Source: Squalus acanthias (Eukaryota). Taken from it: DNA of 64,000 nucleotides. Within the stretch, counting starts at the first letter, position 1; the number at the start of each line of letters is the position of its first letter. Location: the NCBI GenBank assembly GCA_030390025.1, contig CM059432.1:38752001-38816000 (forward strand), written 5' to 3'. Shown here one piece after another: positions 1 through 48,234 of the stretch. The notes below the pieces were generated by a model. The model saw only the letters and a program-made list of their open reading frames with translations. It was not told the origin of the DNA and searched no databases. Position numbers and translations under genes: made by a program.

Positions 1-281
1 ATCTAGAGCCATCTTTTGTTTCTTAACCTGTCCTATTACCATCTCGTCTCGCCTTGAATATCTCTTAATGTCTCTTTACTTCTCACAAACCTTCCCTTTT
101 GTTCTTTTATTCCCTCTCCCATTTCCCAGCCCCCAAACTTGCTTTTTCATCTGTTTCATTTCCTGCTTTTTTCCTCAGTTCTGAAGAAGGGTCTTCGACC
201 TGAAACGTTAACTCTGTTTCTCTCTCCACGGATGTTGCCTGGCTTGCTGAGTTTTTCCAGCTCTTTCTGTTGTTATTTCAG
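1..281 (+). mobile_element. Penelope-like pseudo-LTR fragment (in SDC2 intron 1)
   Basis: Closely similar to 17875-18137, the pseudo-LTR of the Penelope element in this window; cut by the window edge. Confidence 0.8.
177..213 (+). ncRNA. Minimal type I hammerhead ribozyme motif
   Basis: agtt-CTGAAGA-stem II (ggtc ttc gacc)-GAAAC-GTT-aact; stem I agtt/aact; palindromic stem III AACGTT. Confidence 0.75.
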
Positions 282-908
282 CTTGTGTCTTGATCCTTTC
301 ACACAGCGACAGGAGGAATTAATTTACTGCAATCTCCTTTCTACAGCCTCAGGCGAAACTACTTTTCTCCGTTCTATTGGGGCGATTAAAGAATGTAACA
401 TTCCCGCATATGTAAAGTGCATTTCTCAAGAGCGCTTTGCAACACACGCCACGGTATTGGAACCGATCCTGTGTTTGGATCGAATTCACCCAGCCTTGCA
501 ACAATCTGAAACAAGGTCGAAAAAAACCTTCCTAATGTATACAATCTCTTATAAGAAACTGGAAATAATCCACAATCCAAACACAGAAACTATTTAGGCT
601 TAGCTTACATTCAAATTGTGTATATAATTTTTACACAGTAGATGAACGTTTATTTTCTTTAAATGACCACTCATAACTTTAAAACTCTTGCATGAAAGAA
701 TCGAAACATCGGAAAAGAAAAATCGTACTCTTAACTGCACCACCACAAGTCAAGATGCGTTTACAGTATCACAAACTAGATTGCGTGCCTCGTCTGATCC
801 TACAAATTTCTCCCGATTCACATTTGGAAGTTCCATTACTCGCCCCCGGAGCAAAGCGGACTAAACAGCAAACGACCATCTCACGTTTTACCCGCTGCAC
901 GGACTCAC

Positions 909-968
909 CAGTTCTCCGTTTACCAGTGTGCAGAGTCCTAAAGTAAGGAGTATCCAGAGGTTCCTCAT
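909..968 (-). CDS. SDC2: Syndecan-2, first coding exon (signal peptide MRNLWILLTLGLCTLVNGEL)
   Basis: Resembles human SDC2 MRRAWILLTLGLVACVSAES; 60 nt, phase 0, donor gtgagt; A at -3; lies downstream of PTDSS1 on the same strand as in human. Confidence 0.92.
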
Positions 969-1520
969 CCTGCTGCCGCTGCTCTCCAGATGGCGAGAGC
1001 TCCGGCTCCGGCTCGAGCAGCTCGCGCGCGTTAGTCTGTGGAACGTCCCGGGGTTCACGCCGCGTTCGCTTCGCAAAGCCTGGCTGCTCCTGGCGGACCG
1101 GGAGTCCCGCTGCACGCTCCGCAACCTCACTCCCCGCAAACACCACTTGTTCTTCTTTAAAAGAATATTCTTCCGTGGACTTTTTCCTCACGCGCTTGTC
1201 TTGAACTTCTCTTCCCCTGATTAAATGTAATTCAAATTATATATATATATATATATATTAAAATAAACGGGCTTTTTTTGTTGTTGAAAGAAAATAATCA
1301 ATGCAATTGAACGCAAAACGAGCTTCCTTCTCAAGAGAGTATCACACTTCTTACCTAACCCTCCTGCAATAACCTCTAAATGCGTCGGCTGTGCGATTTA
1401 AGTGGGAAAAAAACGATCCTGGAGCGAACCAGACTGCGTGCGCAGCTCTGCTCCAGGGGTGTGGCGAGCAGCTTGATTTGATTGACATGACCAATAGAGA
1501 TGTAAACTTACCTTATTGGA
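969..1520 (-). promoter_or_regulatory. SDC2 5' leader / promoter, CpG-rich
   Basis: High CpG density ~880-1200 and ~1380-1470; CCAAT at ~1491-1495 (+) and ~1515-1519 (-); no minus-strand ATG between 969 and ~1485; TSS not determinable. Confidence 0.6.
1238..1258. repeat. (TA)n microsatellite
   Basis: About 10 TA units. Confidence 0.95.
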
Positions 1521-2770
1521 CAGGGTTTTTAATATATAAATGAGTGATAAGATTTTATTTTTCTATTTTTTAAAACTCTTATGCTGGTAAAAGCAGGCCT
1601 TACGCAACAGTTCAATGTCACTCAAGACCCAGATACAGCAACCGCACTTATGGATTCCCTAGCTGAATGGCGAGAAACCACCGAAAACCTGGATTTCTCA
1701 CACTCCAGCAGGAAACCCTGGAACCTGCTCTGCTGGCTTGGTGCTGCCTTACTGCCCCTATGTGAGGTGCCAAAGGTCAGTGCAGATGCCATTGTGGCCT
1801 GCCTCCGAACCAACTCAAAGGTAATGATTATCACCGAAAACAAATGCTGAAAAAGTTGCTTAAGCTCTCTCTGCAAAAAGCCGCTCCGCACACCTCCGAA
1901 GAGGTGGACACAGCGCTGAGAGCCGCCAAGTCTGGGAAGGCCGCCAGGATCAATGGCATCTACCCAGAATTTCTCAAGAACCAAGGCCCAAATGGACGGA
2001 TGTAATTGCCAAACTTGCCTCCAACATCCTTGATACTGGGATTATAAGAACATAAGAACATTATTCGCAGAAGTTTGGCGCCATTCAAAAGTCATTGCTT
2101 TCCTAAAGCCAGGAAAACCAACCAACGATCCCAAAAGCTACCGCCCCATCGCCCTTTGGTCTATAGTCTACAAGGTGGTCCAACGGCTCATCCTTAACTG
2201 GATAAAACTGGCTTTAGAAGCCGCCTTCCCAAACGAGCAGTCGGGTTTCAAGAGAGGGAAGAAGCTGCTCTGACCAGGTCCAACATTGAAGCAGGGTCCC
2301 AGAAGTAGCTGAAGACTAGCGCTGCCTTCATAGACTTGTCATCGGCATACAACACTGTCTGGCGCGAAGGTCTGCTATTAAAGCGTTCAATAATAATCCA
2401 ATGCTGCAAGACTGTCAGGCTGATCAATGCCCTAACAAGCAACCGTAAGTTCAGCATCTATTTTGGTGACAAGACCAGCCGAGCACTGACGCTCAACAGT
2501 CTGTCACAGGGGTCGGTGCTCACACCAGACTTTTTCAACAACTATGCGGCGGACATGCCCTGCACCAAATCCTGGAAGTTTGCATATGCTGATGACATGG
2601 CACTGCAGACGCAGGCATCAACACTAGAGGAAGCAAGTAGGACGATAACAAGCAACCTGGACATACTGGAACACTACTTCTGGACCTGGTGCTTCCGCCC
2701 CAATCCAGAGAAGACAGTTGTGTCAGCGTTCCATCTGAACAACAACGTCGCCGGGAAAGAACTCAACATT

Positions 2771-4570
2771 TCAGCTGCCTCTGCCACTTCCCTTCCTTCC
2801 ACTAGCCCACTGGACCAAACTTCCTTTAAGGGTCCCCCCCGCCCAAGCCCTGAACTCACATCTTTCTCCAGTTTCTCTCCGATCTCCCCTCATGACCTCT
2901 CTGTGCTCATCTTGTCCATGAGACCCACCTCCTGCTCCCTCGACCCTATTCCCACCAAACTGCTGACCACACAACTTCCTTTTCTGGTTCTTATGTTAGC
3001 TGATATTGTTAACGGTTCTCTCTCCTCAGGTACTGTCCCCCTCTCCCTCAAATCTGCCGTCATCACCCCTCTCCTCAAAAAACCAACCCTTGATCCCTCC
3101 GTTCTTGCAAACTACCATCCAATCTCCAACCTCCCTTTCCTCTCCAAAGTCCTTGAACTTGTTGTCGCCTCCCAAATTCGTGCCCATCTTTCCCGCAATT
3201 CCATGTTTGAATCCCTCCAATCAGGTTTCCGTCCTTGCCACAGTACTGAAACAGCTCTCATCAAAGTCACAAATGACATTCTTTGTGACTGTGACAAAGG
3301 TAAACTATCCCTCCTCGGCCTTCTTGACCTGTCTGCAGCCTTTGACACGGTTGAACACTCTATCCTTCTCCAACGCCTCTCCACTGTCATCCAGCTGGGT
3401 GGGACTGCACTCGCCTGGTTCCATTCTTGTCTATCTAATTGTAGCCAGAGAATCACCTGCAACCGCTTCTCTTCCCACTCCCGCATCGTTACCTCTGGTA
3501 TCCCCCAAGGCCCCCTCCTATTTCTCATCTACATGTTGTCCCTTGGCGACATTATCCGAAAACACAGGGTCAGTTTCCACATATACGCTGACGACACCCA
3601 GCTCTACCTCACTACCTCTTCTCTCGACCCCTCCACGGTGTCTAAATTGTCAGACTGCTTGTCTGACATACAGTTTTGGATGAGCAAAAATTTTCTCCAA
3701 TTAAATATTAGAAAAACTGAAGCCATTGTTTTCGGTCCTGCCACAAACTCCGTTCCCTAGCCACTGACCCCATCCCTCTCCCTAACATCTGTCTGAGGCT
3801 GAACTACACTATTCGCATCCTTGGTGTCATATTTGACCCTGAAATGAGCTTCCGACCACATATCCGCAGCATAACAAAGACCGCCTACTTCCACCTCCGT
3901 AACATCATCCATCTCCGCCCTTGCCTCAGCTCATCTGCTGCTGAAACCCTCATCCATGCCTTTGTTACCTCTAGACTTGACTATTCCAATGCACTCCTGG
4001 CTGGCCTTCCACATTCCGCCCTACGTAAACTTGAGGTCATCCAAAACTCGGCTGCCCGTGTCCTAACTCGCACCAAGTCTTGTTTACCCATTTCCCCTGT
4101 GCTCGCTGACCTACATTGGCTCCTGGTTAAGCAGCCCCTCGATTTCAAAATTTTCATTGTTGTTTTCAAATCCCTCCGTGGCCTCACTCCTTCCTATCTC
4201 GGTAATCTCCTTCAGCCCCACAACAACCACCCCCCACCCCCACCCCCGAGATATCTGCGCTCCTCTAATTGTGCCCTCTTGAGCATCCCTGATTATAGTC
4301 GCTCAACCTTTGGTGGCTATGCCTTCTGTTGCCTAGGCCCTAAGCTCTGGAATTTCCTGCCTAAACCTCTCCGCCTCGCTACCTCTCTTTCCTCCTTTAA
4401 GATGCTCCTTAAAACCTACCTCTTTGACCAAGCTTTTGGTCACCTGCCCTGATTTATCCTTATGTGGCTCGGTGTCAAACTTTTTGTCTTAAAATACTCC
4501 TGTGCAGCACCTTGGGACGTTTTACTACGTTAAAGGCGCTATATAAATACAAGTTGTTGTTGTTGTTGTT
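2771..4570 (+). mobile_element. L2-clade LINE, 5' truncated, nested in the Vingi-like element
   Basis: RT motifs QSGFRPCHSTETAL, LLDLSAAFDTV, YADDTQLY, HAFVTSRLDYSN; 3' end aaaggcgctatataaatacaag followed by (TTG)n. Confidence 0.9.
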
Positions 4571-5143: not shown

Positions 5144-5270
5144 GAAGAGTCATCGACCTGAAACGTTAACTCTGTTTCTCTCTCCACAGATGCTGACTGA
5201 CCTGCTGAGTATTTCCAGCATTTTCTGTTTTTATTTCAGATTTCCAGCATCTGCAGTATTTTGCTTTTGT
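5144..5270 (+). mobile_element. 127-bp Penelope pseudo-LTR-derived insertion with 13-bp TSD
   Basis: ATTAAGAACCAAC at 5131-5143 and 5271-5283; insert begins inside the hammerhead core. Confidence 0.85.
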
Positions 5271-7589: not shown

Positions 7590-9778
7590 GCCGGGGAGAA
7601 AACATTGTGGCCGCCACGAGAGTTGCCAGTGCTACCCAAGAAAAAAATTCACGCTGGGGGCTAATGATTTTTAGCCCAACTAAACTTACTGTGTAACGCC
7701 CTCCTGGTGGCGTTAGTGCAGGCATGGAAGTCGAAGTTCCCGTCCTGAAGCTTCTAACAGCCTCTGGGAGCGAGGCTATGGAGTTCGCAAGGAATTGTGG
7801 GCAATTAAAAGGGCTATGAATTAAAGGGGCAATGCGTTCAGAACTAACAAAAATTACAATGCAGTGAAAAAATGCAGTTTTAGCCCTTACTGCCTTAAAA
7901 AAAATATTAACATTAAAAAGAAATCCCAAATGGGAGTCTTCAGCATTTAAAGCTGAATTCCCTCCCGAACCTCAAAAAATGGGAAAAGTACTTCAGCACT
8001 AACACAAATGGCTCAGCAAGCCAGGGAAGGGGCACCCAGGGTCTCGCACGCAGCACTCCAGCTTCATGCAGGGGTTAACACTGCAAAAGAGGTCTTCTAC
8101 CCACAGGAGCCAGGAGGCCCTCCAGAAAGAACGATGTGAGACTAGATCACCAAGGCCGTCACTGCCAGCAGTGTCACCCCCACCACCTGGCTCCAGTGCC
8201 CAAAGAAGATTCATGACCTCAGATCACTGGCCAAGGTCAGTGAATGCATCTTCAAAAGCCGTCTCCTACCAACTGAATCACAAGCCTCACACACTGCTCA
8301 TTGCACGATTCCTCCCTCCCCCGCCAATCACTCACCTAACAACAATCTGTACCAATCACGAGGCACATCTCCTATTCCTAGCCTCACCTCACTCCCTTGG
8401 AGGAGACGGTGCAGGCCAGTTTTGGCAGGGGCATGGCTGAGCCCTTGGCCAGAGGTGGGGCTGAAAGGATACAAGATGTTGGTATCCTCATACGTTATCC
8501 TCCTTCTGGCATGCACCTCTTGCTTTCCTGCCCTCCCCTCACCACAACTCTACCCTTGTGCCTTCCTCATTTCACACACCCAAGAAATGCAACTGCCCAG
8601 CCAGTGGTTGGCCAAGAAGAGGGAGAGGAGAGGGAAGGAGAATAATAAGAAGAAGAAACACCATCACTTGATTTGACACTCCCAGCCGCCAGCTCCTAAA
8701 GGTCGACCAGCAAGGCCATTTGCAGTGTCCCCCACTGAAAGTCAGCTGCCTTCCACCAGCCATGCTGCAGCCACTGGGGTAGCACTGCATAACATCAGTA
8801 GGATAGGCAAATGCACACACAAGACAGTCACTAAGAGAATGCATAAGGGTGATGAATTGATTTCTTGATGTCATATTGGATGGATAGATGTATAAAGTTG
8901 GATTGGAAAGTTTGCTTTGTGGTGGCTTTTATTTCAGCATTGTGGCCAAGAGGACGCTGTGATGGTCAGTAACAGAGGGAAGGTAAGGTGTGGGACAAAT
9001 GTTAAAAGGGGAATTAGGGTTGTGTTCACTGGGACCGCAGGTGGATGATTTCATCCTGGATATCCCACCCAGAAAGGGCTGTCTGCATTGCATCCTTCCT
9101 TCTGCTTCCTCCCCTTCTGTTTCCCCCTCTTCTGTTTCCCCCTCTTCTGCTTCTTCCTCTTCTGTTTCCTCCTCTTCTGCACCTTCCCCTTCCCTGTGCA
9201 AGCGGATGCTGGAAATCTGAAATGTCAGCAGGTCAGGCAGCATCTTGACATGTTTCTCTCTCCACGGATGTTGCCTGACTTGCTGAGTATTTGCAGTTTT
9301 TTCTGTCTTCTCAGAGGCCTTCCTTTATCATCTGAGGCCTTGCAAGTGTCCAGCAGCACTCCCTACAGACTTGAAAAACTTTAAAATTCTATTGCAGCAA
9401 GCCACTACTTCAGGAACATTTTAAAAAAGTCCAAAAGCTTACATGAAAACTTACATAAAAGATGTGTATGTCCCTTTAAGAGGTGCTGACAGCGGCTCTG
9501 TGAGTCTGCTTGCATGCTGGGTTTACCTGGCTTGATTAGGACCCCTGGGGTCGAATTTCGCCATGGTGATGTTAAGTCAGCGTTGCACGCCAACTGACGG
9601 CACCACTCCGCCATTTAAATCTGAAGGGCGATACTTCTTAACGGCAGTGCTGCCGGACCTGGGAAAATGGAGGACGCCGCGGGACCCACCACCAGCTGGC
9701 GAAAGAGCGGCAGCTGCCCTCTTTGCGCCATTTTTTGCTGGCAGCAGGTGGCATAAAGCCCCTGAATTTTTAGCCCCC
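7590..9778. mobile_element. Harbinger/PIF-like DNA transposon remnant
   Basis: Minus-strand Glu-rich run followed by a degraded transposase-like C-terminus (~9027-9190); ends in aatttttagcccc like the other 3-bp-TSD elements here; boundaries uncertain; contains a small Penelope-derived piece at ~9200-9305. Confidence 0.45.
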
Positions 9779-10449: not shown

Positions 10450-11307
10450 GGCCGGAATTTTGCCAGCGCTCAGGGGGCGGGTTTGGAGTTGGGACATCCG
10501 GTAAAATCGCAAAGATTGACAGCGGGCAGGAAACCTATCAATCTTCCCAAGTGTCGGGTCCCTGATTTGCGCATGGACCCGACACCGAGCGGCGGGAAGA
10601 GAATTATAGCCACTTAACTGCCTGTTAAAGGCTGTTAACAGGCAGTTAACAGGCTCTTTTGCAATTTTGACACTTCTACTTCGGGCTTCCCGAAGTCCGG
10701 ACAACACACCAGGTAAATGTGGCGTGTTGTGAGTCTGCTGTAATGTTTCTGCATTGATGACAGCTGCAGAAGTGGTGTGAAGGATCCAATGGTGCACTGG
10801 TGAGTTTCAGAGGTAAGGAAATGTTGGGAAATTCATTTTTGATGCATTTAGACTTTTCTGTAGGTAACAAGATTTGAATTGGTTGTCTAGTCCCACCTCA
10901 TTGGGAGAACCTCTCTCGCCAGTGACAGATCGCTTCTGTAACCTCACCTGCAGCTGCCATCTGTTCTAGTCCAAGGAGGGAGTCACTGGAGAGTCTGGGT
11001 GCAAGAACTCACCTGTGAACAGCCATTGTCAGTGTTTGCAGCACCTCAATGCTGTCAAACACTGAGAAATCAGCTGTCAAAGAAAAAATGTGTGTGGTCC
11101 CTTTAAGAAAACTGGCAGATGACGCGTCATCAAATGACGTCATCTGACCGGCTTCTTCGTAATTGGCCGGCAAGCCTGCAGGTTGGGCTTAACAAGACCA
11201 ATTGACGTAAAATCACGTCCGTGGGCCGGATGAAGTTGGGGGCGGGACTGGAACCCGGAAACCAGCTGACCCGCTCCCAAGCCGCATCGATCGATAAAAT
11301 CGCGCCC
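10450..11307. mobile_element. Non-autonomous DNA transposon (Harbinger-like MITE)
   Basis: Imperfect TIRs ggccggaatttt / aaaatcgcgccc; 3-bp TSD ATA; inserted in the octamer tail of the adjacent CR1. Confidence 0.7.
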
Positions 11308-11310
11308 ATA

Positions 11311-12630
11311 GAGTCATAATGGCACAGAAGGAGGCCATTCAGCCCATCGGGTCCGTGCCGGCTCTCTGTAGAGCAATCCAGTCAGTCCCATCCCCTGCTC
11401 TATCCCCGTAGGTCTGCAAGTTTATTTCCCTCAAGTGCCTATCCATTCTCCCCTTGAAAACATTGAGTGTCTCCGCTTCCACCACTTCCTTCGGCAGCGA
11501 GTTCCAGGTCCTCACCACTCGTTGCGTAAAAAAGCTTTTCCTCACATCCCCCCTGTATCTCTTGCCCAAAACCTTAAATCTGTGTCCCCTAGTCCTTGTT
11601 CCATCAACTAGTGGGAACAGCCTTTCCCCATCTAGCCTATCCAAACCCACCATAATCTTGTACACCTCGATCAAATCAACCCTCAACCTCCTTTGCTCTA
11701 ATGAAAACAAATCCAGCTCCTCCAACCTGTCCTTGTAGCGAAGATCCCCCATCCCCGGAACCATTCTGGTAAACCTCCTCTGCACCCTCTCAAGGGCCTT
11801 CACATCCTTCCTAAAGTGTGGTGACCAGAACTGGATGCAATACTCCAGTTGTGGCCTAACCAGCGCTTTATAAAGGTTCAGCATAACTTCTCTACTTTTG
11901 TACTCAATACCTCTATTTATGAAGCCCAAGATCCCATATGCTTTGCTAACCACTCTCTCAATATGTCCTGCCACCTTCAGGGACCTATGCATATTAACTC
12001 CCAGGTCCCAGGTCCTTCTGTCCCTGCACATTCTTTAAAACTATGCCATCAAGTGTATATTGCCTCTCCCTGTTCCCTCTGCCAAAATGCATCACCTCAC
12101 ACTTCTCTGTATTAAATTCCATCTGCCACTTGTCTGCCCATTCTGCTAGCCTTTCTATGTCTTGTTGCAGTCGATTGGTATCATCATCACTGTTTGCCAC
12201 ACCCCCAAGTTTGGTGTCATCGGCAAATTTAGAAATTCTACTCTGTATTCCAATATCCAGGTCATATATCAAAAAAAGCAGTGGCCCAGCACTGACCCTT
12301 GGGGAACACCACTGTCTACCATACTCCAGTCTGAAAAACAGCCATTTACCACAACTCGCTGTTTTCTGTCCTTAAGCCAATTCCTTATCCAAGCTGCCAC
12401 TGACCCACCTATTCCATGAGCCTCAATTTTGTTAACCAGCCTTCAATGTGGTACTTTGTCAAACGCCTTCCTAAAATCCATGTAGACAACATCCATTGCA
12501 TTTACTTCATCAATCCTCCCTGTTACTTCATCAAAAAATTCAATTAGATTAGTCAAACACGATCTGCCTTTTACAAATCCATGTTGGCTCTCCTTAATTA
12601 GCTTAAACCTCTCCAAGTGCCCGTCAATTT
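11311..12630 (-). mobile_element. CR1 LINE 3' portion
   Basis: ISKFADDTKLGG, LVRPQLEYCIQFWSPH, FFTQRVV; (atagagtc)n tail. Confidence 0.93.
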
Positions 12631-13596
12631 TGCTGAGGTAAAATGCCTGTAAAGGACTGCATGGCCTGTTGCTGGAATGAGCTTGACATAAGCAGCATGC
12701 TGTATCGACATCAACAGCAGGCCAGTGGAGTGCAGCATTTGATGTAAGCCGATGGTCAATGGGTAAGTGAAAGAATGCAGAAAAAAAATTAGAATTGTGC
12801 TTTTTTCTGGTTGATTTTATGTTTACCCGAAGTTTGTATTTTGGAGTGGATACAATGTTTCATAAATATTACTCCAGTGCAAAATGTCATGACATAGTTA
12901 AAGTATAATATGTTCCTGTCACAGTCCCCATTATATTTTCATTGATTGGACTTTTTTTGCAGGGGAGATTTTTAAAATCATTGACAAGACTACAGCACCC
13001 CCTAAAGGTAGGTCAAGGAATATCAAAGTGAAACATTGGACAAGTTTAAAAAAATGCCCAAGTAATGTATTAGTTTTCTGTTCAATATTTGTGTATTGAG
13101 AAACCTCAATTATTTAGTGCAATTTTCCTTATCATCTCTGATTAAATTTAACTTGTGCTACTAATCGCCGACATCATACATCGTTCCACCTATAAATGAG
13201 AAAAAGATTGAGACAGTGCATAATAACACAAAGTACGAAACAACAGAGGCCACTGTGCATACACAGACCATGTATAATTTGAATTAGAGTTTCCTACGCA
13301 ATTTCTTTAATGTCCTGGGAGAGGTGACTAATCACAGCTAAAACAATTCTCTGAGATTTCTTTCTCGCCTCCAAAGGTCATATAGTGAAATGCTAGGATA
13401 TTAGTCAAATGCTCATTACACTGCACCAAGTATCAACAGTATATAGAATCATAGCATTGTACAGCACAGAAGCACACCATTCAGCCCATCACACTAGTGC
13501 CAGGTCTCTGAAAGAGCTATCCACTTAGTCTTATTCCCCTACCCTTTTAGATCTTTCTTTCTGAAATATTTATTCACTTGCCTTTTAAAAGCTAAT

Positions 13597-15490: not shown

Positions 15491-15855
15491 CTGGAAGTCC
15501 TGGCTACTGCTGGGGCAGAGACACCTAAACCCCAACATGAGGAGGATCTTGATTCAAAGGATGCTACCATCCTGGCTCATCTAACTTCTTTTCAGAGCAT
15601 GATCATAAGATCTGACTCCACTGGCTCCTCAGCCATGGTCTTTGAAATCTTTTCCGTTCTTTCGTGCTCTGCGAATCTCAGTGCTAATTCCTTATTCCCA
15701 CAATCTTTCTCCCCTGGGGTATGTCTTTGAGCTGGTGAGTGAGAAAGAAAGGGTGAATGACACAGGAGGCAGTGGCCAGAAGATGATCTGAAACAACAAC
15801 AGAAAACGCTGGAAAAACTCAGCAGGCCAGGCAACATCCGTGGAGAGAGAAACAG

Positions 15856-15891
15856 AGTTAACGTTTCAGGTCGAAACCCTTCGTCAGAACT
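15856..15891 (-). ncRNA. Minimal hammerhead ribozyme motif
   Basis: Reverse complement reads agtt-CTGACGA-agggtttcgacct-GAAAC-GTT-aact. Confidence 0.75.
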
Positions 15892-18035
15892 GAGAAAAAA
15901 GCAGGAAATGAAACAGATAAAAAAGCAAGGGGGAGGCTGGGGGGAGGAATAAAAGAACAAAAGGGGTGGTCTATGGTAAGTAGAGACATTAAGAGATGCT
16001 CAAGGCAAGATGAGATGGTAATAGGACAGGATAAGAAACAAAAGGTGGCTCAGAAGTGTGAAGTGTGAAATGCTGGCAGAATGAGAGACAGCTGCCGTGG
16101 GGGGAGAGACTACCGAACATCAAGCCACCGTTTCCAAGACCGTCACTGACCTCATCTCCTCTGGAGATCTTCCCCCCACGGCCGCCAACCTCATAGTGCC
16201 CAACCCCGCACAGCCCGCTTCTACCTCCTTCCCAAGATCCACAAACAGGACTGCCCTGGTAGACCCATCGTTTCAGCCTGTTCTTGCCCCACGGAACTTA
16301 TCTCTTCCTATCTCGACTCTATTTTTTCTCCCCTTGTCCAGTCTCTTCCCACCTACATCCGCGATTCCTCTGATGCCCTCCACCACTTTAACAGTTTCCA
16401 GTTTCCTGGCCCCAACCGCCTCCTTTTCACCATGGACGTACAATCCCTCTACACCTCCATCCCCCACCAGGATGGCCTGAGGGCGCTCCGCTTCTTCCTT
16501 GAACAGAGGCCCAACCAGTCCCCATCCACCAGCACCCTCCTCCGCCTGGCTGAACTTGTTCTCACATTGAACAACTTCTCCTTTGACTCCACTCATTTCT
16601 TCCAAATCAAAGGTGTTGCTATGGGTACCCGCAAGGGTCCTAGCTATGCCTGCCTTTTCGTGAGATATGTGAACACTCTTTGTTCCAGTCCTACTCAGGT
16701 CCCCTCCCTCACCTCTTTTTCCGGTACATTGATGACTGTATCGGTGCCGTTTCCTGCTCTCGCCCTGAACTAGACAATTTCATTCACTTTGCCTCCACTT
16801 TCCACCCTTCCCTCACCTTCACATGGTCCATCTCCGACTCTTCCCTTCCCTTCCTCGACTTCTCCGTCTCCATTTCCGGGGATAGGTGATTGACCAACAT
16901 TCACTACAAGCCCACTGACTCCCACAGCTACCTGGGCTACACTTCCTCCCACCCCGCCTCCTGTAAGGACTCTATTCCCTTCTCCCAGTTTCTCCATCTC
17001 CGCCGCATCTGCTCCGACGATGCCACCTTCCATACCAGTGCTTCTGACATGTCTTCCTTTTTCCTCAACCGAGGATTCCCCTCTACCGTGGTTGACACGG
17101 CCCTTGACCGTGTCCGTTCTATCTCCCGCACTTCTGCCCTCACCCCTGCCCCTCCCTCCCGGAACCATGATAGAGTTCCTCTTGTCCTCACCTTTCACCC
17201 CACCAGCCTCCACATTCAACGGATCATCCTCTGCCATTTCTGCCACCTCCAATGTGATCCCACCACCAAACATATCTTCCCCTCACCTCCCCTTTCAGCA
17301 TTCCGTAGGGACCGCTCCCTCCGAGACACCCTAGTCCACTCCTCTATCACCCCCAGCACCCCTTCCCCCTCGCCCGGCACCTTCCCGTGCAAACGCAGGA
17401 GATGCAACACCTGCCCTTATACCTCCCCCCTTCCCGGGCCCCATACACCCCTTCCAGGTGAAACAGCGATTTACTTGTACTTCTTGCAATTTAGTATACT
17501 GTATTCGCTGCTCACGATGTGGTCTCCTCTACATTGGGGAGGCCAAACGCAGATTGGGTGACCGTAAGGGTGACCCCGAGCTTCCGGTCGCTTGTGATTT
17601 TAATTCACCTCTCCACGCCCACTCAGACCTCACCGTCCTCGTGCATTGTTCCACGTAAGCTCAGCGTAAGCTCGAGGAACAGCACCTCATCTTCCGATTA
17701 GGCACTTTACAGCCTTCCGGACTCAATATCGAGGTCAACAATTTCAGATCATAACCTCGGCCCCTACCACATAGATATACATTTTATCCACCCTTTTGGT
17801 TTGTGCCTTTTCCCTTTTCTTTCTCTCTCTCCCCCCACGGCAGCTGTCTCTCATTCTGCCAGCATTTCACACTTCAGAGCCACTTTTTGTTTCTTAACCT
17901 GTCCTATTACCATCTCGTCTTGCCTTGAGCATCTCTTAATGTCTCTACTTACCATAGACCACCCCTTTTGTTCTTTTATTCTCCCCCCAGCCTCACCCTT
18001 GCTTTTTTATCTGGTTCATTTCCTGCTTTTTTCTC

Positions 18036-20095: not shown

Positions 20096-20101
20096 ATATA
20101 T

Positions 20102-30400: not shown

Positions 30401-31336
30401 AATGATTTAGATATGAATGTAGGAGGTATGATCAGTAAGTTCGCAGATGACACGAAAATTGGTGGAGTGGTAAATAGCGAGGAGGGAAGCCTCAGGCTAC
30501 AGGACGATATAGACGGGTTGGTCAGATGGGCAGAACAGTGGCAAATGGAATTTAACCCTGAAAAGTGTGAGATGATGCATTTTGGGAGGACTAACAAGGC
30601 AAGGGAATACACAATGAATGGTAGGATCCTAGGGAGGACAGAGGAACCTTGGTGTGCATGTACATAGATCCCTGAAGGCAGCAGGACAGGTAGATAAGGT
30701 GGTTAAAAAGGCATATGGGATACTTGCCTTCATTAGCCGAGGCATAGAATATAAGAGCAGGGAGGTTATGATGGAGCTGTACAAAACGTTAGTTAGGCCA
30801 CAGCTGGAATACTGTGTGCAGTTCTGGTCGCCACACTATAGGATGTGATTGCATTGGAGAGCGAGCAGAGGAGATTCACCAGGATGTTACCTGGGCTGGA
30901 GCGCTTCAGCTATGAAGAGACTGGACAGGCTGGGGTTGTTTCCCTTAGAGCAGAGAAGGCTGAGGGGGGACCTGATTGAGGTGTACAAAATTATGAGGGG
31001 CGTAGATAGAAAGGAACTTTTCCCCTTAGTAGAGGGGTCAATAACCAGGGGGCATAGTTTCAAGGTAAGGGGCAGGAGGTTTAGAGGGGATCTGAGGAAA
31101 AAACTTTTTCACCCAGAGGGTGGTTGGAATCTGGAACTCACTGCCTGAAAGGGTGGTAGAGGCAGGAACCCTCACAACATTCAAGAAGCATTTTGATGAG
31201 CACTTGAAACGCCATAGCATACAAGGCTACGGACCAAGTGCTGGAAAATGGGATTAGAATAGATAGGGCTTGATGGCCGGCACGGACACGATGGGCCGAA
31301 GGGCCTCTTTCTGTGCTGTATAAATCTATGACTCTA
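27427..31336 (+). mobile_element. Near full-length CR1 LINE (ORF1 zinc finger/zipper + SGNH esterase; ORF2 APE + RT), frameshifted
   Basis: ORF1 from 27461: C..RKC, IVIGASIVR, VHIGTND, DGLHLN; ORF2: YYRPP, GDFNFP, SDHN, FADD; ctatgact tail; possible TSD TAATTT. Confidence 0.95.
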
Positions 31337-33216: not shown

Positions 33217-34971
33217 CTGAAATGAACAAAAAGCCTAATTAGATAGTCTATACTCCCTTTTCAGGCTCCAAATCACACACAACTTCACAAAAATAGGCAG
33301 TTACCATCTAATATGTTTTCATTTATTTTTGACATTTTACAAAACCGATGCAGGACCACAAAACAATAGTATTCCTGCTGCTGGCCTGGAGGTGAGCAAA
33401 CTCAGAAAAGACCACGTATCTTTCTCATCTCTGGTTATGTACAGCACTGCTTAGAGGTTTTTTTAAAACTCCCCCCATCCCCCCCTCACCTTTAAAATAT
33501 AATATAAAACTTGATTTGTGAATACATTATTCTGGTCTATACACACTATGAAAATGATATAATAATCAAATCACCCAATTTGTTCAGAGACTTATCAGCA
33601 ACAAAATGATGCTTAGTGAAACAAACAAAAAATGCTGGAAATACACCGCACTTCATTCAGTGTCTGTGCAGAGAAAACAGGCTGGGAAGGGACCTGCCCG
33701 AAACTGTGACTAGCCTTTCCTCTCCATGGTTGCTCATGGACCTACTGTGCAGATACAGAATTTTCTGCTTTTGTTTCAGATTTCCAGCATTTGGAGTTTT
33801 TTTGCTTTTTATTTATATGCTTAGTGAACTCTGCAAATATTTTCCTTTGCAAGAACAAAACAACACGCTTTTAATATGTTGGCCCTTAAAGTTGAGCACT
33901 TTAAGCTTAAAATCCTCTGGGTCCAATTGATTAATTTAAAAAATGATGGTATCAAGTAAAATATTTAAGGCCACATTGCATTTTTCTTAATGTTATTGTC
34001 ACATTTATGAGTGAATGCTAGATATTCTACTTGGGTTCATCATCACCACATCCACGCCAGTAAGCAGACCTTGTGTCCCCTAGGACCTGGAGTGTACCTT
34101 TACTGATCAAATATCTAGGTAAGCGACAGCAAGACCCAGGGATCGAATAGGGAACCCTTTCCACTGTACAGTGGCTTCCGGGAATGTACCATGTGTCACC
34201 ATGTGATTCTCTTGGTCTTCGTAAGCAGATTGAATCGGTACGGTGGTAGGTTAAAATTAAAAAAATTATAAACCAGACCCCAAGCTGCCTCGAACGTGCC
34301 CACTTCTGGGTTGGGGGGGGGGGGGGGGGTGCTGGTGGGGGTGTTGGCGGGCGACTAACCTGCTCTCAAGAGGCGGGGCAGTTATTTAAATACGCCAATG
34401 AGGCTGCCGGCCTCAAATTTCAACAGACTTCTAGATTTAACGGCTGCGGGCCAGGTTTCCCAGGACTCAGGAAACCAGACAGCTGAGGGGAGGTGAGAGC
34501 AGCTGGATTCAGCGGGTAAGTGCCTTTCCAGCACTGCTTGTGGGCCAGGAAGAGTAGCAGGGCTTCACCCCAGCCCCACAAGCAAATCTGCTCCCTACCC
34601 CGTGATCTCCACTCCCCCCCCCACGATCTCTTTACACCCCACTCCAGTGATCTCTCCCACCCTCCTCTCTGCTCTGCTCCCCGGCTGTGGCCTCCCAGCA
34701 CAGGCCTTCCCGCCCGACAGCCAGCCACCCTCTCAATCTGACTGGCTGCCAGCTGGGAAACGGGGAAAGAAATTATTTAATGATGTCCTGCTATTAAATT
34801 CGGCAGGACCTTCACGTGAGCCGCATTTCACCGCCGCTACGACCCCCCCACCCCCACCGTAAATATCAAGGCCTTAGTTACCAATCCAGGCTCAAGGTAG
34901 AATATAGGTCCTTGCTGGAACCTGCTATTAATGTGGAATTTACCAGAACAATAAGCAATGAACTTTCTTAC

Positions 34972-36164: not shown

Positions 36165-36960
36165 AAAGAAAACGAACGACTTGCATTTATATAGCGCTTT
36201 TCATGACCTCACGACATCCCAATGAGCTTTACAGCCAATGAAGTACTTCTTAAGTGTACTCACTGTAATGTAGGAAAGGCAGTAGCCTATTTGCACAGGA
36301 AATACAGAAGCCTATTTGCACACAGCAAGGTCACACAAACAGCAGTGTGATAATGACCAGCTGTTCTGTTTTAGTTATGTTGGTTGAGAGATAAATACTG
36401 GCCAGGACACTGGGGAGAAGTTGCCTGCTCTTTTTCAAAATAGTGCCATGGGATTGTTTACGGGCACTTGAGAGGGAAGATAGGGTCTCGGTTTCACAGA
36501 ATCACAGAATCCCCACAGTGCAGATAGAGGCCATTTCGGCCCATCGAGCCTGCACCGACACATATCCCACCCTATCCCCATAACCCCACATATTTAATCC
36601 CCCTAACACTAAGGGTCAATTTATCATAGCCAAATCAACCTAACCCGCACATCTTTGGACTGTGGGAGGAAACCGGAGCACCCGGGAGGAAACCCACGCA
36701 GACACGGGGAGAATGTGCAAACTCCACACAGACAGTCACCCGAGGCCGGATTCGAACCCGGGTCCCTGGCGCTGTGAGGCAACAGTGCTAACCACTATGC
36801 CACCGTGTTGGTTTAAAGTCTTATCTGATAGACGGCACCTCAGACAGTGCAACACTCCCTCAGTACTTCACTGGAGTGTCAGCCTAGATTTTGTGCTCAT
36901 GTCTCTGGAGTCGGACTTGGACCGACAACCTTGTGACTTGGAGGGGAGAGTGCTGCCATT
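36165..36960 (-). mobile_element. Deu-domain SINE (SacSINE1-like) with L2-type tail, interrupted by an HE1 SINE
   Basis: Deu-like core (atcccatggcactattt on minus); 3' end resembles the L2 terminus at ~4505-4560. Confidence 0.75.
36495..36809 (-). mobile_element. HE1-like V-SINE
   Basis: tRNA-like head with B box ggttcgaatcc; V-domain gtggagtttgcacattctccccgtgtctgcgtgggtttcctc; (gattctgt)n tail; TSD GGTTT. Confidence 0.88.
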
Positions 36961-38180: not shown

Positions 38181-38447
<267 letters not shown>

Positions 38448-38704
38448 TCAACAGCTGCTCTGCCAGAATATTCAGTATAACATTAAACTAAAAATAATGT
38501 CCTTCCAACTTTGGTGATGGGGTTGAATATGGGGTTTGGAGCTCCGCTCTGGGTTAAACAGGTTACCATGTGGTTCCAGCGAGCAACTGGGAATAGGGAT
38601 GGAAATGGAGACCAGTGTTCAGTTGGGCAAAGTTCTAGTTCATCTACAACTTGATGTCGTAAAAGCAATACAGCAACATGGAGGAGTTAGAGAGTAAAGA
38701 GTGA

Positions 38705-39100
38705 AAAAGAAAAAGACTTGTATTTACATAGCGCCTTTCATGACCACCGGACGTCCCAAAGCGCTTTAGCCAATGAAGTACTTTTGAAGTGTAGTCACTG
38801 TTGTAATGTAGGAAATGTGGCAGCCAATTTGCACATAGCAAGCTCCCACAAACAACAATGTGATAATGACCAGATCATCTGTTTTAGTGATGTTGATTGA
38901 GGGATAAATATTGGCCAGGGCACCAGGGATAACTCCCCTGCTCTTCTTTGAAATAGTGCCATGGGATCTTTTACGTCCACTTGAGAGAGCAGATGAGGCC
39001 TCGGTTTAACGTCTCATCCGAAAGACGGCACCTCCGACAGTGCAGTACTCCCTCAGCACTGCACTGGAGTGTCAGCCTAGATTTTTGTGCTCAAGTCTCT
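38705..39100 (-). mobile_element. Deu-domain SINE (SacSINE1-like)
   Basis: Same family as 36165-36960, well preserved; truncated by a MITE start ggggctgaattttgcc at 39101. Confidence 0.8.
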
Positions 39101-41014
39101 GGGGCTGAATTTTGCCAGTGCTCAGAGTGCGGGTTTGGAGGCGGGTCCACTGTCAAAATCACAAAGATTGACAGCAGGGTCAGCAGAACAAAGGGAGCTG
39201 GTGGATAATTCAACAGAGACAGCAACATCTTGATGGGTGGAGCGCCAGAGAAGAGCATGTTTTAGTAAGGGAGCTGTGAGCAGGGGAAGTTTCCCTCCCT
39301 CCCCCCCAACCCCAGGAGACAGAGGTCGAGGATAGTTTAGACGGTGCGGGAATAAGGAAGTAGTCACAGAAAGCATGGTTGATAATGAAAACCTCACAAA
39401 TGGTGAGGCCTAACGTGATGCCAAAGTCAAGGAGGTATGTATGGGTTGGAGAGGTTATTTGCTGCGTGAGGACAAGAGGCACAGAAGTCAGGGGAGAGGG
39501 TGGGGTAAGGGAAGTTTCAGTAAGCTGGAAGTCATTGAGGATGAGGAGCTTTTCGGTGCAAAGGCCAAGGGAGGAGAACAGGGAGATCTCTGCTTGGGGG
39601 AGGAAATTAAAAGAGTGGGTGGGCGCTGTGCAAGAGGGCGAGGTGCTCAAATGAGGATAATATGTCAGAAGAGAAGGGCGAGAGACTGAGATGAGACCTA
39701 GCCCCCACCACCACATTTCAGTCTCCTCAGTAAACAGAATATCAACACACAGATCAAAGCTTTTGGACTTAATTTGTTTACTACTTAAAGCACAATGGAG
39801 CCTAAGAATTAGGCTAATATTACAGAGCACATGGTAATATTCCTATGCGTGCAACACAAAGTGTCAGAGAGTTAGACAACACCTCTCCAGATATATAGAG
39901 ATTCTTAGACTTAGACAAACTACATTTGGATTTGCCGATACGCAAACCATTCAGTCTTCGAATGCCACTTTCAGTATCAAGTTAGCACATCAAGTAGTAT
40001 CCTTCAGGAGGAGAGTTCCACGTGAAATGCACAAGCTGCTTAATTGTATAGTCCTCGCATCGAAGCTGCCAGAAGGAGCTTTTATATTGGCTCCCCAAGA
40101 ATGAGCCTTGCTCAGCCAGTTACAAGGCAAATATAAAAGTATGGGTACTCACCGAGTTCGGTGGTTGCCGGTCTTAACGAGTCCATATGGTTTTACATTT
40201 AACTTTCAACCAGCTGCACAGGCTCTGCGCTTGGGTAGCCCAGTAGCACCAGCACAGGTCTAACACAATCTAAAACAAGCAAGAACTAGAGACCTGCAGC
40301 AAAGGTCCAGTACTTGTATCCTGAAACTTTCTGACATGGGTTCTCAATGCATTTTGACAATTTTTTTCATAAAGCAGCAACAATGATCGCTTTCAAGGAT
40401 AATTTGTCTTATTGTTTATCCAGAGGAAGCTCAAATGACTCTTTCAGTGAATCACACCAAATGCAATGACAGTAGATCTTGAATGAAACATACCTTTTCT
40501 AAAAGACAATGATGCCTCATGCTGCATAATACACATCAGATTGTTTTAAAATTATATAACACATATATATTAAAATAGTGTGATTGTCATCCAAAAAATG
40601 CTACTTCCTGTATCACTTTTTATAATGTAAACATTTATAATGAGATGTAAACATTTTAGAATGGAAAAAGCAAATGTAAACATTTTGACATCATGGTTTA
40701 TTGATGAATTAATTAAAGTACTCAAGATGTTTTCTGAAAAAAAATCATCCGTTTCCTGCACCCCCCCCCCCCGCCGGGTAACAAATTTCTAACGTCCAAA
40801 ATAATATTTTAACAAAATAAAAAAATTACAAATGACATGTTTCATAATAACATGATTATTTTTATCCATTGAATTGTTTTTGTACCTTTAAAAACCTTCA
40901 TTAGGGTTTTACTTGAAAGCTTCAACCTCTCCTAAAAGCCTGGGCTTGGCCTCGATATTTCTTACTCTCCCACCACGACCAGATCCCAAGCCAACTTCGA
41001 GCCTCATAAATGCA

Positions 41015-41990
41015 TAAACAACAACTTGCATTCAAATAGCAACTTTAGTGTAGAAAAATGTTTCAAAGCATTAATTAAAAAAGTGAGTCAAAGGAGGAGT
41101 GACCAAAAACTTAATCAAAGAGGTGGGCTTTATGGAGGAGGAGAGCTGGAGAGGTTTAGGGAGGGAATTTCAGAGCATGGGTTTAGGCGACTATTGGTGG
41201 GGTAAAGAGAGGAGGAGATGCGCAAGGCGCCAGAGTCAGAGGAATGGAGAGTTTGGGCGGGCGCGGGGGGGGAGGGGCATTATAGGGATGGAGGAGGTTA
41301 CAGAGATAGGGAAAGGTGAAGCCACAAAGAGATTTAAACACAAGAATAAGAATTTTAAATCGGTGGTGATGGGTTTGAGGGGTTAGCAAAGACAGAGATG
41401 AAGTCTGAATGGGACTCAGTGCAGGACAGAATATGGGTAGCAGAGTTTTGGATCAGTTGAAGTTTACAGATGGTGGAGGAGGAGTGCCTGGTTGGAGAGC
41501 ATTGGAATTATCATCTGAAGGCATGGATGAGAGTTTCAATGGTATATCGACTGAGGCGGGGACAGAGGCGAGCAAAGTTACAGAGATGGAAGTAGGCAGT
41601 CTTTGTGATGTAGAGGATATGGGGTCAGAAGCTCAGCTCAGGGTTGGATAGGACACGAAGGTTGCGAACAGTCTGATTCAGCCCGTCACAGTGGCTAGGG
41701 AGGGGAATGGGGTTTGTGACAGGGGTCTAATACAAGGCTTCAGTCTTCCCAATGTTTAGGAAATCACAGCTCATCCAAAACTGGATGTTGAACAGGCAGT
41801 TTGATAACACAGAGGCGGTGGAGGGAGTCGAGAAAGGTGGTGGAGAGCTATGCGTTATCAGTGTACATGTGGAAGCGTAAATGCTCTGACGATGCTTGGA
41901 TAGGTAAAAGTGAGGGTAGTCCCACCAAGCTGGACAACAGAGGAGAGGCTTTGGAAGAGGATGGTGTGGTTGACTGAGGTAGGAAACTTT
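41015..41990 (-). mobile_element. Degenerate L2 LINE 3' portion
   Basis: FKILILVFKSL, LSNCL..IQFWMS, LNIGKTEA; (ttg) tail near 41020; another L2 piece at ~39290-39720. Confidence 0.75.
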
Positions 41991-44511: not shown

Positions 44512-44625
<114 letters not shown>

Positions 44626-44708
44626 CTAAATAAAGAACAGAAAAAATACATAACAGGTTTAATGATCTCAAACAATTCTTTAGCCGTTAACATTATGTAA
44701 AGGATTTA

Positions 44709-46445
44709 TAAGAACATAAGAAATAGGAGCAGGAGTGGGCCATTCGGCCCTTCGAGCCTGCTCCGCCATTCAATGAGATCATGGCTAATCTTCTGCCTCA
44801 ATTCCATTCACCGGCCCTATTGTCATATCCCTTGATGCCCTTACTAGTCAGAAATCTATCGACTTCTGTTTTGAATATACCCAATGACTGAGCCTCCACA
44901 GCCCTCTGGGTACAGAATTCCAAAGATTCACTACACACTGAAGAAATTTCTTCTCATCTCAGTCCTGAATGGCCTACCCTTTATCCTGAGGCTGTGGCCC
45001 CTGGTTCTAGACTCCCCAGCCAAGGGAAACATTCTTCCAGCATCCACCCTATCAAGCCCTGTAATAATTTTGTATGCTTCAATGAGATCCCCTCGCAATC
45101 GTCTGAATTCAAGAGAATACAGGCCTAGTTTACTCAATCTCTTCTCATATGACAGTCCCGCCATCCCAGGATCAATCTCGTGAACCTTCGTTGCACTCCC
45201 TCTATGGCAAGTATATCCTTCCTTAGGTAAGGAGACCAAAATTGTACACAGTACTCCAGGTGTGGTCTCACCAAGGCCCTATATAATTGGAGTAAGACTT
45301 CTTTACTCCTGTACTCAAATCCTCTTGTAATGAAGGCCAGCATACCATTTGCCTTCCTAATGGCTTGCTGCACCTGCACATTCACTTTCAGTGACTCATG
45401 TACAAGGACACCCAGGTCCCTTTGAGCATTTGCATTCCCCAATCTTTCACCATTTAGGAAATACTCTGCCTTTCTGTTTTTTCTACCAAAGTGGATAACT
45501 TCACATTTATCCACATTATAATCCATCTGCCATGTTCTCATCCACTCACTGAGCCTGTCGAGATCCCCTTGAAGCCTCTTCACATCCTCTTCGCAACTGA
45601 CACTGCCACTTAGCTTTGTGTCATCAGCAAATTTATAAATGTTACATTTAGTCCCCTCATCCAAATCATTGCTATAGATTGTGAATAGCTGGGGCCCAAG
45701 CACTGATCCTTGCGGTACCCCACTAGTCACAGCCTGTCATCCTGAAAAAGACCCGTTTATCCCTACTCTTTGTTTTCTGTCTGTTAACCAATTCTCAATC
45801 CATGCTAGTATATTACCCCCAATTCCATGTGCCCTAATTTTGTTCACCAACCTCTTGTGTGGGACATTATCGAAGGCCTTCTGAAAATCCAAATACACCA
45901 CATCTACCGGTTCCCCTTTGTCTACTCCACTAGTTACATCCTCAACGAACTCCAATAGGTTTGTCAAACAGGGCTTCCCTTTCATAAATCCATGTTGACT
46001 CTGTCCAATCTTAGAAACTAATAGTAAGTGCCCAGTTATTGTATCCTTTTATAATAGATTCCAGCATTTTCCCAACTACTGATGTGAGGCCAACAGGTCT
46101 GTAGTTCCCCATTTTCTCTCTCCCTCCTTTCTTAAATAGCGGGGTTACATTTGCTAACCTCCAATCTGCAGGAACCGTTCCAGAATCTATAGCATTTTGG
46201 AAGATGACAACCAATGCGTCCACTATCCCAATGGTCACCTCTTTCAAAACCCTAGGATGTAGGTCATCCGGTCCTTGAGATTTAGCGACTTTTAGTCCCA
46301 TTAATTTTGCTAGTACTGTTTTTTTTTACTAATAATAATTTCTAAGTTCCTCATTCTCGCCACACCCTTGGTTTTCTTGTATTTGAGAGGTTTTTTGTGT
46401 CTTCCTCCGTGAAGACAGAACCAAAGTATTTATTTAATTTCTCTG
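44709..46445 (-). mobile_element. CR1 LINE 3' portion
   Basis: RT motifs in ORFs 44931-46301; (ataagaac) tail. Confidence 0.92.
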
Positions 46446-46836
46446 CCATTTCCTCATTCCCCATATGAAACCCGACAACCAGCAGTCCCGCCCCCAACGA
46501 CAAAATCCAGCCTTTTGTTTTCTGTTAGTTAGCCAATCCTCTATCCATGCTAATATATTACCCCCATCCCCGTGAGCTCTTATCTTGTGCAGTAACCTTT
46601 TATGTGGCACCTTATCGAATGCCTTCTGGAAATCCAAATACACCAGCATCTACTGGTTCCCCTTTATCCAACCTGCTCGTTACAGCCTCAAAGAACTCCA
46701 GCAAATTTGTCAAACATGATTTCCCTTTCATAAAACCATGCTGACTCTGCTTGACTGTATTATGATTTTCTAAATGTCCTGCTACTACTTCCTTAATAAT
46801 GGACGCCAACATTTTCCCAATGACAGATGTTAGGCT

Positions 46837-48234
46837 TGTAGGGTTCTCAAAATTCCCACATTCCCCAGAGTTATTAATAAGGGGTACCCTGGACAAAGTG
46901 GCTTCTAGACCTCATGGCAGAAGCCTGCGACATTGAACAGAAACCAGGGCCCTGCAAAAACAGCAGGCAAGGTGACATGCCCAGGTCTGTAAGAGAGTTG
47001 CGAAATTCCCAGACCCCCAAAAGACTCAGAGGAAAAGAGAGACCCTAAGAAAAAGGGGCTTTGGACATTTTAAAACCAATTGCTTTACCCTGGCCTTAAA
47101 TCTATTTGATTTCCAGCTCTTCCCAGTTCTGATGAAAGGTCATCGACCTGAAACGTTAACTCTCTTTCTCTCTCCACGGATGCTGCCTGGCCTGCTGAGT
47201 TTTTCCAGCGTTTTCTGTTGTTATTTCGGATTTCCAGCATCCGCAGTATTTTGCTATCGTATGAGTATATTGGACCTTGGGACATTTTAAAACATTTTTA
47301 AACAGACCTCAGAGGCTGCCAAAGGAGGCGGGGCTGGCCTCTACAGACAATGTTGTATATTCGACCTATCTCCAGCCCCATCAAACTGTTTAGCATTTAT
47401 ACAAAGAAGTAAAGGCAACACAAATGAACAACCATCAGACCAGCAATCATCCTCCACTTAACAAATATTTAATATTGTTAAAGGCCATCTCCTGCCATTA
47501 AAAGTTAACTACCTTAACGAGCCGACGAGAATTAAACAGAGCACTGGGAAGATTTGGCGGCCAAATAAGGAACAATCGAACAGTATAACTTTAGACTGGA
47601 ACAAGCCGGAGGGGGAGAGAGACGAGTTCTACAAGCCGGGGGCTACAGAGACCTATGCTGGAACAAGCAGGAGTTCTACACAGACAGGCTACAAGCAGGA
47701 CAGCTGAAGCACAGGAGTTCTCCAGTACACAGGTCAACAGAAGGAAGACCGTTCAACAAAGAAGGCCAGCAGCTCCAGAAACAGACCGACACGCAAGAAA
47801 CCAGAGCAACAGTTCCAGTGACCATCAAACACCTCGAGGCACAAGGGCCTTATGAAACTTTTTACTTAAAAAGGACTTTAAACCATATCCTCAACTGTCA
47901 AAGGATTCGTTTGGTGAGCATTATCCCTGGTCCTCAAGAGTCTAACTTAGCTAGTAAAGTGGGGTTGGGAGGGGTGAGGTATTGTTCTACTGTCATTTCC
48001 CTCGTTTATACCGAAGTTAAGATTGACATGTTATGTTTCATCTCTGTTAAATAAACATTGGTTTTCCTCGCACCAATCCACGGGTCTGTTCGTTTGTCCT
48101 TATCGCCGCTCGATAAGTCCTGGGCTCAGAACTAATAAGGGGATAGCGATTTGCAACCGCACAGCGGGCAAGGACAGTCCAGGAAAACAGAACTGGCTGA
48201 CCTACAAATAAGCCCGAGACAAAAACCCCTTACA
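46837..48234 (+). mobile_element. Solo LTR (Gypsy or ERV)
   Basis: TGTA...TACA termini; exact 4-bp TSD GGCT (46833-36, 48235-38); AATAAA at ~48049; splits the CR1 reading frame. Confidence 0.82.
47125..47161 (+). ncRNA. Minimal hammerhead ribozyme motif in a pLTR-derived insert (~47077-47279) within the solo LTR
   Basis: agtt-CTGATGA-a-aggtc atc gacct-GAAAC-GTT-aact; flanking repeat GGACATTTTAAAAC at 47063-76 and 47280-93. Confidence 0.78.

Follow-up and report, generated by a model that had tools for sequence, protein, structure and literature searches.

Minimal hammerhead ribozyme motifs in the pseudo-long terminal repeats of an endonuclease-bearing Penelope-like element family

A stretch of 64,000 nucleotides from contig CM059432.1 (GenBank assembly GCA_030390025.1, positions 38,752,001 to 38,816,000; the whole stretch is referred to as the window) contains six copies of a short motif with the features of minimal type I hammerhead ribozymes. 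Very probably, these motifs belong to the pseudo-long terminal repeat (pLTR) of an endonuclease-bearing Penelope-like element (PLE) and were dispersed with it as 5'-truncated and fold-back insertions; the parent element would use them for a weak, dimer-dependent cleavage, and the copies in the window would be inert. The motif, its site 285 nt behind a PLE open reading frame (ORF), the target-site duplications, the inverted pLTRs and two classes of 3' ends were all observed. By analogy to published relatives, it is likely that the motifs form dimers, that their cleavage is slow or assisted by protein and trims a precursor RNA, and that insertion is target-primed. Motifs of this class are already known from PLEs, as is the dimer model, so the copies in the window are one more example, from what is likely a cartilaginous fish. 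The question in the field is whether PLE hammerheads cut in vivo, and for what purpose.

Motif copies and their relation to published hammerheads

The first-pass annotation of the window had listed four copies with an intact core, one with a mutated core and one truncated at its 5' end, and all six were recovered in place and orientation. The intact motifs lie at 177-213 on the plus strand (stem II of 5 bp, G.U at 10.1-11.1, predicted cleavage after the GUU ending at 209), at 15856-15891 on the minus strand (predicted cleavage after 15860), and at 18036-18071 and 47125-47161 on the plus strand (predicted cleavage after 18067 and 47157, respectively). The plus-strand copy at 23365-23401 reads CTGGCGA, which corresponds to an A6 to G change in the core, and is predicted to be inactive, and the sequence of the copy at 5144 begins only at G8. 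A pattern composed of the CTGANGA core, a spacer and GAAACGTT had exactly four matches in the window (181, 15860-15887 on the minus strand, 18040, and 47129) and none in 100 dinucleotide-preserving shuffles, and a 17-mer from the 3' half of the motif matched six times without mismatch, compared with 0.14 matches expected at up to three mismatches. The six copies are not independent, however, since the identical motifs at 15856 and 18036 are mirror copies within one inverted repeat, namely the inverted and direct pLTRs of a single insertion event, and the six motifs thus represent five insertions.

In hammerhead numbering, each full-length copy consists of the stem I 5' strand AGUU, positions C3 to A9, an extra A, a stem II of 4-5 bp, and G12, A13 and A14, followed by A15.1, C15.2, G16.2, U16.1, U17 and the stem I 3' strand AACU. 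The extra base between positions 9 and 10.1 is an A in all six copies, which also share the palindromic A-C-G-U segment and have no helix III. Pairing in type I topology, with 4 bp in stem I and 4-5 bp in stem II, is possible in all five full-length copies, and the copy at 5144 has an A.C mismatch within stem II. The motifs at 15856 and 18036 are one base shorter, with a 4-bp stem II closed by a TTCG loop. Variation had initially been described as falling mostly at N7 and in and around the stem II loop. This holds for N7 (A, C, C, T and C in the five full-length copies) and for the loops (TTC at 177, ATC at 47125 and 5144, TCC at 23365), but the first base of stem II varies as well, being G in five copies and A in 47125, always opposite a U. 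The 10.1-11.1 pair accordingly is G.U in five copies, A-U in 47125 and in none the consensus G-C.

The comparisons made here and below draw on the available parts of the cited works. The consensus of the minimal hammerhead ribozymes (min-HHRs) from PLE pLTRs (PMC4209133; Cervera and De la Pena 2014) comprises a U-rich flank, CUGANGAH, stem II, GAAAN, the palindrome, and NUH. The window motif shares with it the type I topology, the CUGANGA core, the extra base between 9 and 10.1, the short stem I, the missing helix III, the palindromic 15.2-16.2 positions and the U-rich 5' flank, and further resembles the min-HHRs in its location within pLTRs and in the many solo and opposite-strand copies. The succession C-G-U-U after GAAA is also found in many rows of Fig. 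S3 of the same study, for example those of Tetraodon, Clonorchis, and Alatina. A difference exists at 10.1-11.1, where the window copies have G.U or A-U instead of the consensus G-C, a pair that occurs in >80% of min-HHRs and is not obligatory. Judged from its sequence, the motif is a member of the min-HHR class by every feature except this non-obligatory pair, and because departures at 10.1-11.1 occur in published members, the absence of G-C does not exclude membership. Neither the R.U pair nor the AACGUU palindrome qualified as a novelty: Fig. S3 contains rows with G.U (Latimeria 1, Xenopus 1, Lottia) and with A-U (Latimeria 2, D. willistoni) at this position as well as the palindrome itself. 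Cartilaginous fish were not found in the available parts of Fig. S3 and Table S1. According to a review (PMC6765202), cleavage of small PLE-associated hammerheads takes place in dimers (work by Lunse, Weinberg and Breaker, 2016/2017), and judged by the title of that work and the review, its class and dimer model are the same as for the window motif. Compensatory changes at G10.1-C11.1 are reported for cricket motifs (PMC2837043), and the extra A10 is covered by a further study (PMC1636495), whose available part holds no data on GUU. No publication on the motif of the shark-type PLE family was found, although subscription papers, repeat databases or bioRxiv supplements may contain one.

The parent element and the anatomy of its insertions

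The proposal that the motifs belong to a Penelope pLTR was supported by the 18036 copy, whose core begins 285 nt past the stop codon of a PLE ORF, and by the 15856 copy, which sits in the inverted repeat 5' of that ORF. Self-comparison of the window placed every motif inside a longer repeat. In the largest instance (15786-18176), an inverted repeat (15789-16109 versus 17826-18138, 95% identical over 321 bp) flanks a coding remnant. This insertion consists of an inverted pLTR copy on the minus strand (15786-16109), the ORF remnant on the plus strand (16115-17755), a 3' untranslated region beginning at 17756, and a 3' pLTR with a long tail on the plus strand (17826-18176). The remnant comprises reverse transcriptase (RT), thumb, CX4CxxC linker and GIY-YIG regions, with the YIDD motif at 16725-16736, the linker at 17388-17414, and GIY-YIG at 17494-17541 and beyond, as far as the stop codon (17755). 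It is damaged by frame changes near 16200, 16670 and 17455 and by in-frame stops at 16887 and 17656. The RT piece had 577 longer relatives among 1231 candidates, and the best named relatives of the ORF were proteins of cartilaginous fish with 72-78% identity. A domain scan of three relatives detected RVT_1 together with GIY-YIG in two and RVT_1 only in the third, which is a partial protein. Matches obtained by tblastn with eight relatives were confined to the 16115-17750 region of the window and were collinear in the order RT, YIDD, thumb, linker, GIY-YIG. Such homologue alignment was needed to recognize the endonuclease, as a Pfam search of the ORF fragments yielded a weak RVT_1 match (E = 0.0019) and none to GIY-YIG. 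On the basis of these similarities, 16115-17755 is a dead, 5'-truncated, endonuclease-bearing PLE with a Neptune/Nematis-type linker. Endonuclease-bearing PLEs of the Neptune/Nematis type (PMC8557442) share with it the RT, a CX2-5CxxC linker, the C-terminal GIY-YIG, 5' truncation, an inverted 5' copy and a tail at one end; the window copy, a putative member judged by its linker, differs from them in being dead. In the four copies read, a frame that runs through the tail begins with an ATG located 23 nt past the predicted cleavage site. By analogy with other PLEs whose pLTR overlaps the start of the ORF, it may be the start codon of the element.

The remaining motif copies are located in much shorter insertions on the plus strand or in fold-backs. 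A pLTR piece with a short 3' end (1-280), cut by the window start, is 87-88% identical to 17876-18138 and 15788-16051. The insertion at 5144-5270 begins in the core at G8, has a long tail and is flanked by a 13-bp duplication (5131-5143/5271-5283), and the solo pLTR-end insertion at 47077-47279, also with a long tail, is flanked by a 14-bp duplication (47063-47076/47280-47293). In the fold-back at 23222-23466, an inverted long tail (23222-23320) precedes a direct pLTR end with a short terminus (23338-23466), and again a 13-bp duplication is present (23209-23221/23467-23479). Three pieces related to the PLE family that lack an intact core were absent from the first-pass annotation: the inverted tail at 23222-23320; a small fold-back at 9202-9306, which is composed of tail pieces only (inverted at ~9202-9244, direct at 9251-9306) and has no hammerhead core; and an older, diverged fold-back of a related family at 33621-33816, with a decayed core remnant (~33697-33704) and a 12-bp duplication (33609-33620/33817-33828). 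Exact target-site duplications of 13, 13, 12 and 14 bp, at 5144, 23222, 33621 and 47077, respectively, thus accompany four of the six insertions examined (the 177 copy, being cut by the window start, was left out of this survey), and the longest word shared within any of 1000 random flank pairs had 11 bases. The 9202-9306 insertion has no flanking duplication of at least 7 bp, and the large insertion at 15786-18176 has just a 7-bp candidate.

The 3' ends fall into two classes, ~+69 to +72 and ~+103 to +105 after GUU and thus about 34 nt apart, and each of the fold-backs at 15786, 23222 and 33621 has one short and one long arm. Published PLE insertions are characterized by inverted pLTRs, a tail of 30-40 bp at a single end and short duplications (PMC3846280, PMC8557442), and the two end classes and the one-sided tail in the window match this optional tail. 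In PAc, a Poseidon PLE of Anolis carolinensis with a pLTR hammerhead (Frangieh et al. 2024, PMC11167929), this tail has been ascribed to reverse transcription starting at two internal sites, both of which it marks, and is comparable to the two end classes of the window. PAc is placed in the Penelope/Poseidon clade, with an ORF that begins at stem II, whereas the window element has a Zn-finger-like Neptune/Nematis linker and its putative start codon past the cleavage site. In the 47077 insertion, 17 bases of unexplained origin (47263-47279) separate the end of the long tail from the duplication, and 18173-18181 may be a similar short addition.

Proposed dimer-dependent cleavage and competing explanations

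The suggestion that AACGTT cannot close stem III in a monomer held up, as A15.1 and U16.1 enclose just two bases and no hairpin is possible. Helix III can therefore form only between two copies via ACGU, which matches the published double-hammerhead model (PMC4209133, PMC6765202). In the parent element, a tandem transcript with two pLTRs would supply both partner motifs. If published relatives are a guide, the two copies would pair their ACGU palindromes and so build the missing helix III, the paired copies would cut weakly after GUU, likely aided by the protein of the element, and this cleavage would trim the tandem precursor RNA; insertion would rely on target-primed reverse transcription initiated at two internal positions.

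Conservation was assessed in 80 metagenome loci encoding related PLE proteins. A structure descriptor (core plus stem I of at least 4 bp and stem II of at least 3 bp, with the palindrome preferred but not required) gave 10 matches in 9 of these loci, compared with none in 5 shuffles. All 10 matches have the palindromic helix III segment and stems that are unrelated in sequence yet pair, and 5 of them lie on the sense strand 136-537 nt past the last matched ORF base. In a scan for core plus palindrome, 7 of the 41 loci containing the ORF end were positive, again with stems that pair despite their unrelated sequences, in comparison to 1 of 820 shuffled stretches. At the level of sequence, the conservation of core and palindrome across distantly related PLEs is clear. 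In one distant relative (L007; motifs at 1087 minus and 3582 plus), a sense motif follows the ORF at 136 nt and an inverted copy lies just before the ORF, as in the large insertion of the window.

Several results weigh against a dimer-dependent ribozyme of the hammerhead class. In a nearest-neighbour model, which has no tertiary or Mg2+ terms, the double hammerhead reached -3.7 to -9.7 kcal/mol versus -16.5 to -21.9 kcal/mol for the best two-strand fold, and a monomer hairpin pairing the core with CGUUA was preferred in four of the five full-length copies. The check by descriptor and covariance model that the first-pass annotation had proposed succeeded only in its descriptor part, which matched four copies and none of the shuffles, whereas the Rfam hammerhead models had no match in the whole window (E<=5) or in 47050-47300 (E<=10). 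No insertion in the window carries two motifs on the same strand; motifs on one strand are separated from their closest neighbours by 5.0, 5.3 and 23.8 kb, these pairs involve the truncated or the mutated copy, and read-through of the large insertion would yield one sense and one antisense motif. Among the five independent insertions, 1 of 51 sites at the 11 core positions differed compared with 18 of 315 in the tail (Fisher p=0.49; a small and underpowered sample), and when stem I and CGU were added to the core, 1 of 102 sites differed (p=0.054 against the tail, likewise underpowered with five insertions). A two-sided compensatory stem change was not found among the window copies, the sole pairing-neutral change being the one-sided G/A opposite U at 10.1-11.1, and 34 of the 41 related loci had no core-plus-palindrome motif within 700 nt. 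With respect to published systems, dimers and trimers of PLE-type hammerheads cleave weakly and 8 of 9 Xenopus dimer elements showed no cleavage. The hammerhead of the Anolis PLE, the one such vertebrate motif to have been reconstituted, cleaved only with the protein of the element and was dispensable for insertion in vitro, where catalytic mutants still inserted, and RNA-seq ends at the hammerhead site were absent according to the available part of the study (PMC11167929).

A clearly less probable, although still credible, explanation retains the same origin but holds that the motif cuts only when bound by the RT-endonuclease protein, or that it persists for a structural or binding role and seldom cuts in vivo. 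The Anolis findings on protein dependence and catalytic mutants and the predicted folds, which disfavour an active dimer, are in line with this possibility, as is the success of Naiad PLEs, which thrive without canonical hammerheads (PMC8557442). On the other hand, the core and the palindromic helix III segment persist in distant PLEs whose stems are unrelated, which fits selection on catalysis and self-pairing, and weak protein-free cleavage of dimers has been published. In the favoured reading, the motif of the PLE family would be a weak, dimer-dependent and probably protein-assisted ribozyme of the master element, and the copies in the window are likely inert by-products of its retrotransposition.

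Contigs from four sequencing runs were aligned to 17450-18250 (801 bases); such data carry no information on RNA ends, strand or copy number. One DNA run contributed 22,757 contigs, and two runs tentatively taken for RNA (X15 and X17) contributed 2,486 and 1,871; a raw-read run (X21) contributed 24 reads only, mostly partial. Twelve runs contain at least half of the sampled words of the PLE family, which is common to several organisms, very abundant and of low divergence, and hence would be convenient material for testing cleavage in vivo. In three runs, the consensus of loose contig ends keeps the core intact, the bases at N7 and 10.1 being C and A, respectively. A few contigs lead from the tail back to the motif or on into GIY-YIG sequence, and some head-to-tail arrangements thus exist. 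Among 40 of the 68 variant rows, none fell in 18015-18086, but many contigs end there and this was not counted as conservation.

It is improbable that the short copies form a separate self-amplifying, non-autonomous family similar to short interspersed nuclear elements (SINEs) or retrozymes. Such a family would account for the lack of an ORF in four of the five motif-bearing insertions, for the sequence upstream of the motif, in which 177 and 18036 are unlike 47125 and 23365, and for the motif and tail bins being among the deepest in the aligned contigs (a measure of depth, not of copy number). PLE-derived hammerhead tandem retrozymes have also been described from one chondrichthyan genome (bioRxiv 10.64898/2026.07.22.740005). 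These non-LTR retrozymes share with the window copies the pLTR-derived type I hammerhead units in vertebrates, but they are defined by tandem units, whereas the window contains dispersed solo and fold-back insertions and no tandem array of the pLTR unit. Furthermore, the 5' ends of the short copies are variable, with one located within the core (5144), their fold-backs, tails and duplications are of the PLE insertion type, and the same pLTR is attached to the ORF at 16115-17755.

Even lower probability is assigned to a switched ribozyme, in which the monomer core would be locked in a hairpin and helix I would be restored once a pLTR intron had been spliced out, as described for Penelope of Drosophila virilis, so that cleavage would be gated by splicing and the protein of the element. 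The lock would be the hairpin with the CGUUA following GAAA, which is the lowest-energy fold in the four full-length copies mentioned above and is kept by C or U at N7, and the AG opening stem I would act as the 3' splice site. In all five full-length copies, this AG (177-178, 18036-18037, 23365-23366 and 47125-47126) is preceded by a pyrimidine tract with CAG at its end, and the tail holds two further pyrimidine tracts resembling 3' splice sites. Among 15 of the 22 joints listed, none had GT..AG ends or landed at 18038, in contigs that drop rare forms. Since no such joint was seen and the U-rich 5' flank is already part of the published consensus, splice gating is unsupported.

Co-option of individual copies as host regulatory ribozymes, for example in introns, is very unlikely. 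In its favour, the core is intact in four copies, one of which (177) is located ~700 nt downstream of a candidate first exon at 968-909 on the minus strand. This motif is antisense to the candidate gene, however, a divergence of 2-6% would leave intact cores in any case, one core is mutated and one truncated, and no partner is available within the same insertion, the same-strand neighbours being kilobases away as given above and two of them defective. A chance resemblance to hammerheads within an ordinary repeat, for which the missing Rfam match and the non-significant fold z-scores of the 36-37 nt motifs (-1.08 to 0.37) could be cited, can practically be dismissed, as the complete core, the additional A after A9, the two stems and the palindrome are found at the usual place of the motif in PLEs, related ORFs are followed by the same architecture, and the shuffle controls, the related-locus scans and the published Fig. 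S3 rows disfavour chance.

Other features of the window

The candidate host exon at 968-909 consists of an ATG in good context and 20 signal-peptide-like codons followed by a GTGAGT donor, and lies within a CpG-rich stretch (observed/expected ~0.8 over 1-2000). If it is real, its first intron holds the 177 motif in antisense orientation and the gene continues beyond the left edge of the window.

Decayed fragments of long interspersed nuclear elements (LINEs) with RT are located at 11307-12632, 18336-20097, 28588-31330, 44973-46754, 53891-55445 and 58148-59499 (RVT_1 up to E = 1.8e-36). They are 63-81% alike, include an APE-type endonuclease piece at 28588-29376, and by their motifs are, we assume, CR1-like. 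A frame of 563 codons (18336-20027), which begins ~160 nt past the PLE tail, is still open. An RT-bearing LINE remnant of another type, presumably L2-like, occupies 2309-4452 (RVT_1 E = 4e-34); part of it recurs at 41217-41874. ARAGORN found no tRNA. A 299-bp repeat pair at 36503-36800 and 48895-49192 (96.7% identical) has a tRNA-like internal-promoter head and likely represents a young SINE, the first copy of which interrupts another repeat that is also present at 38704-39102.

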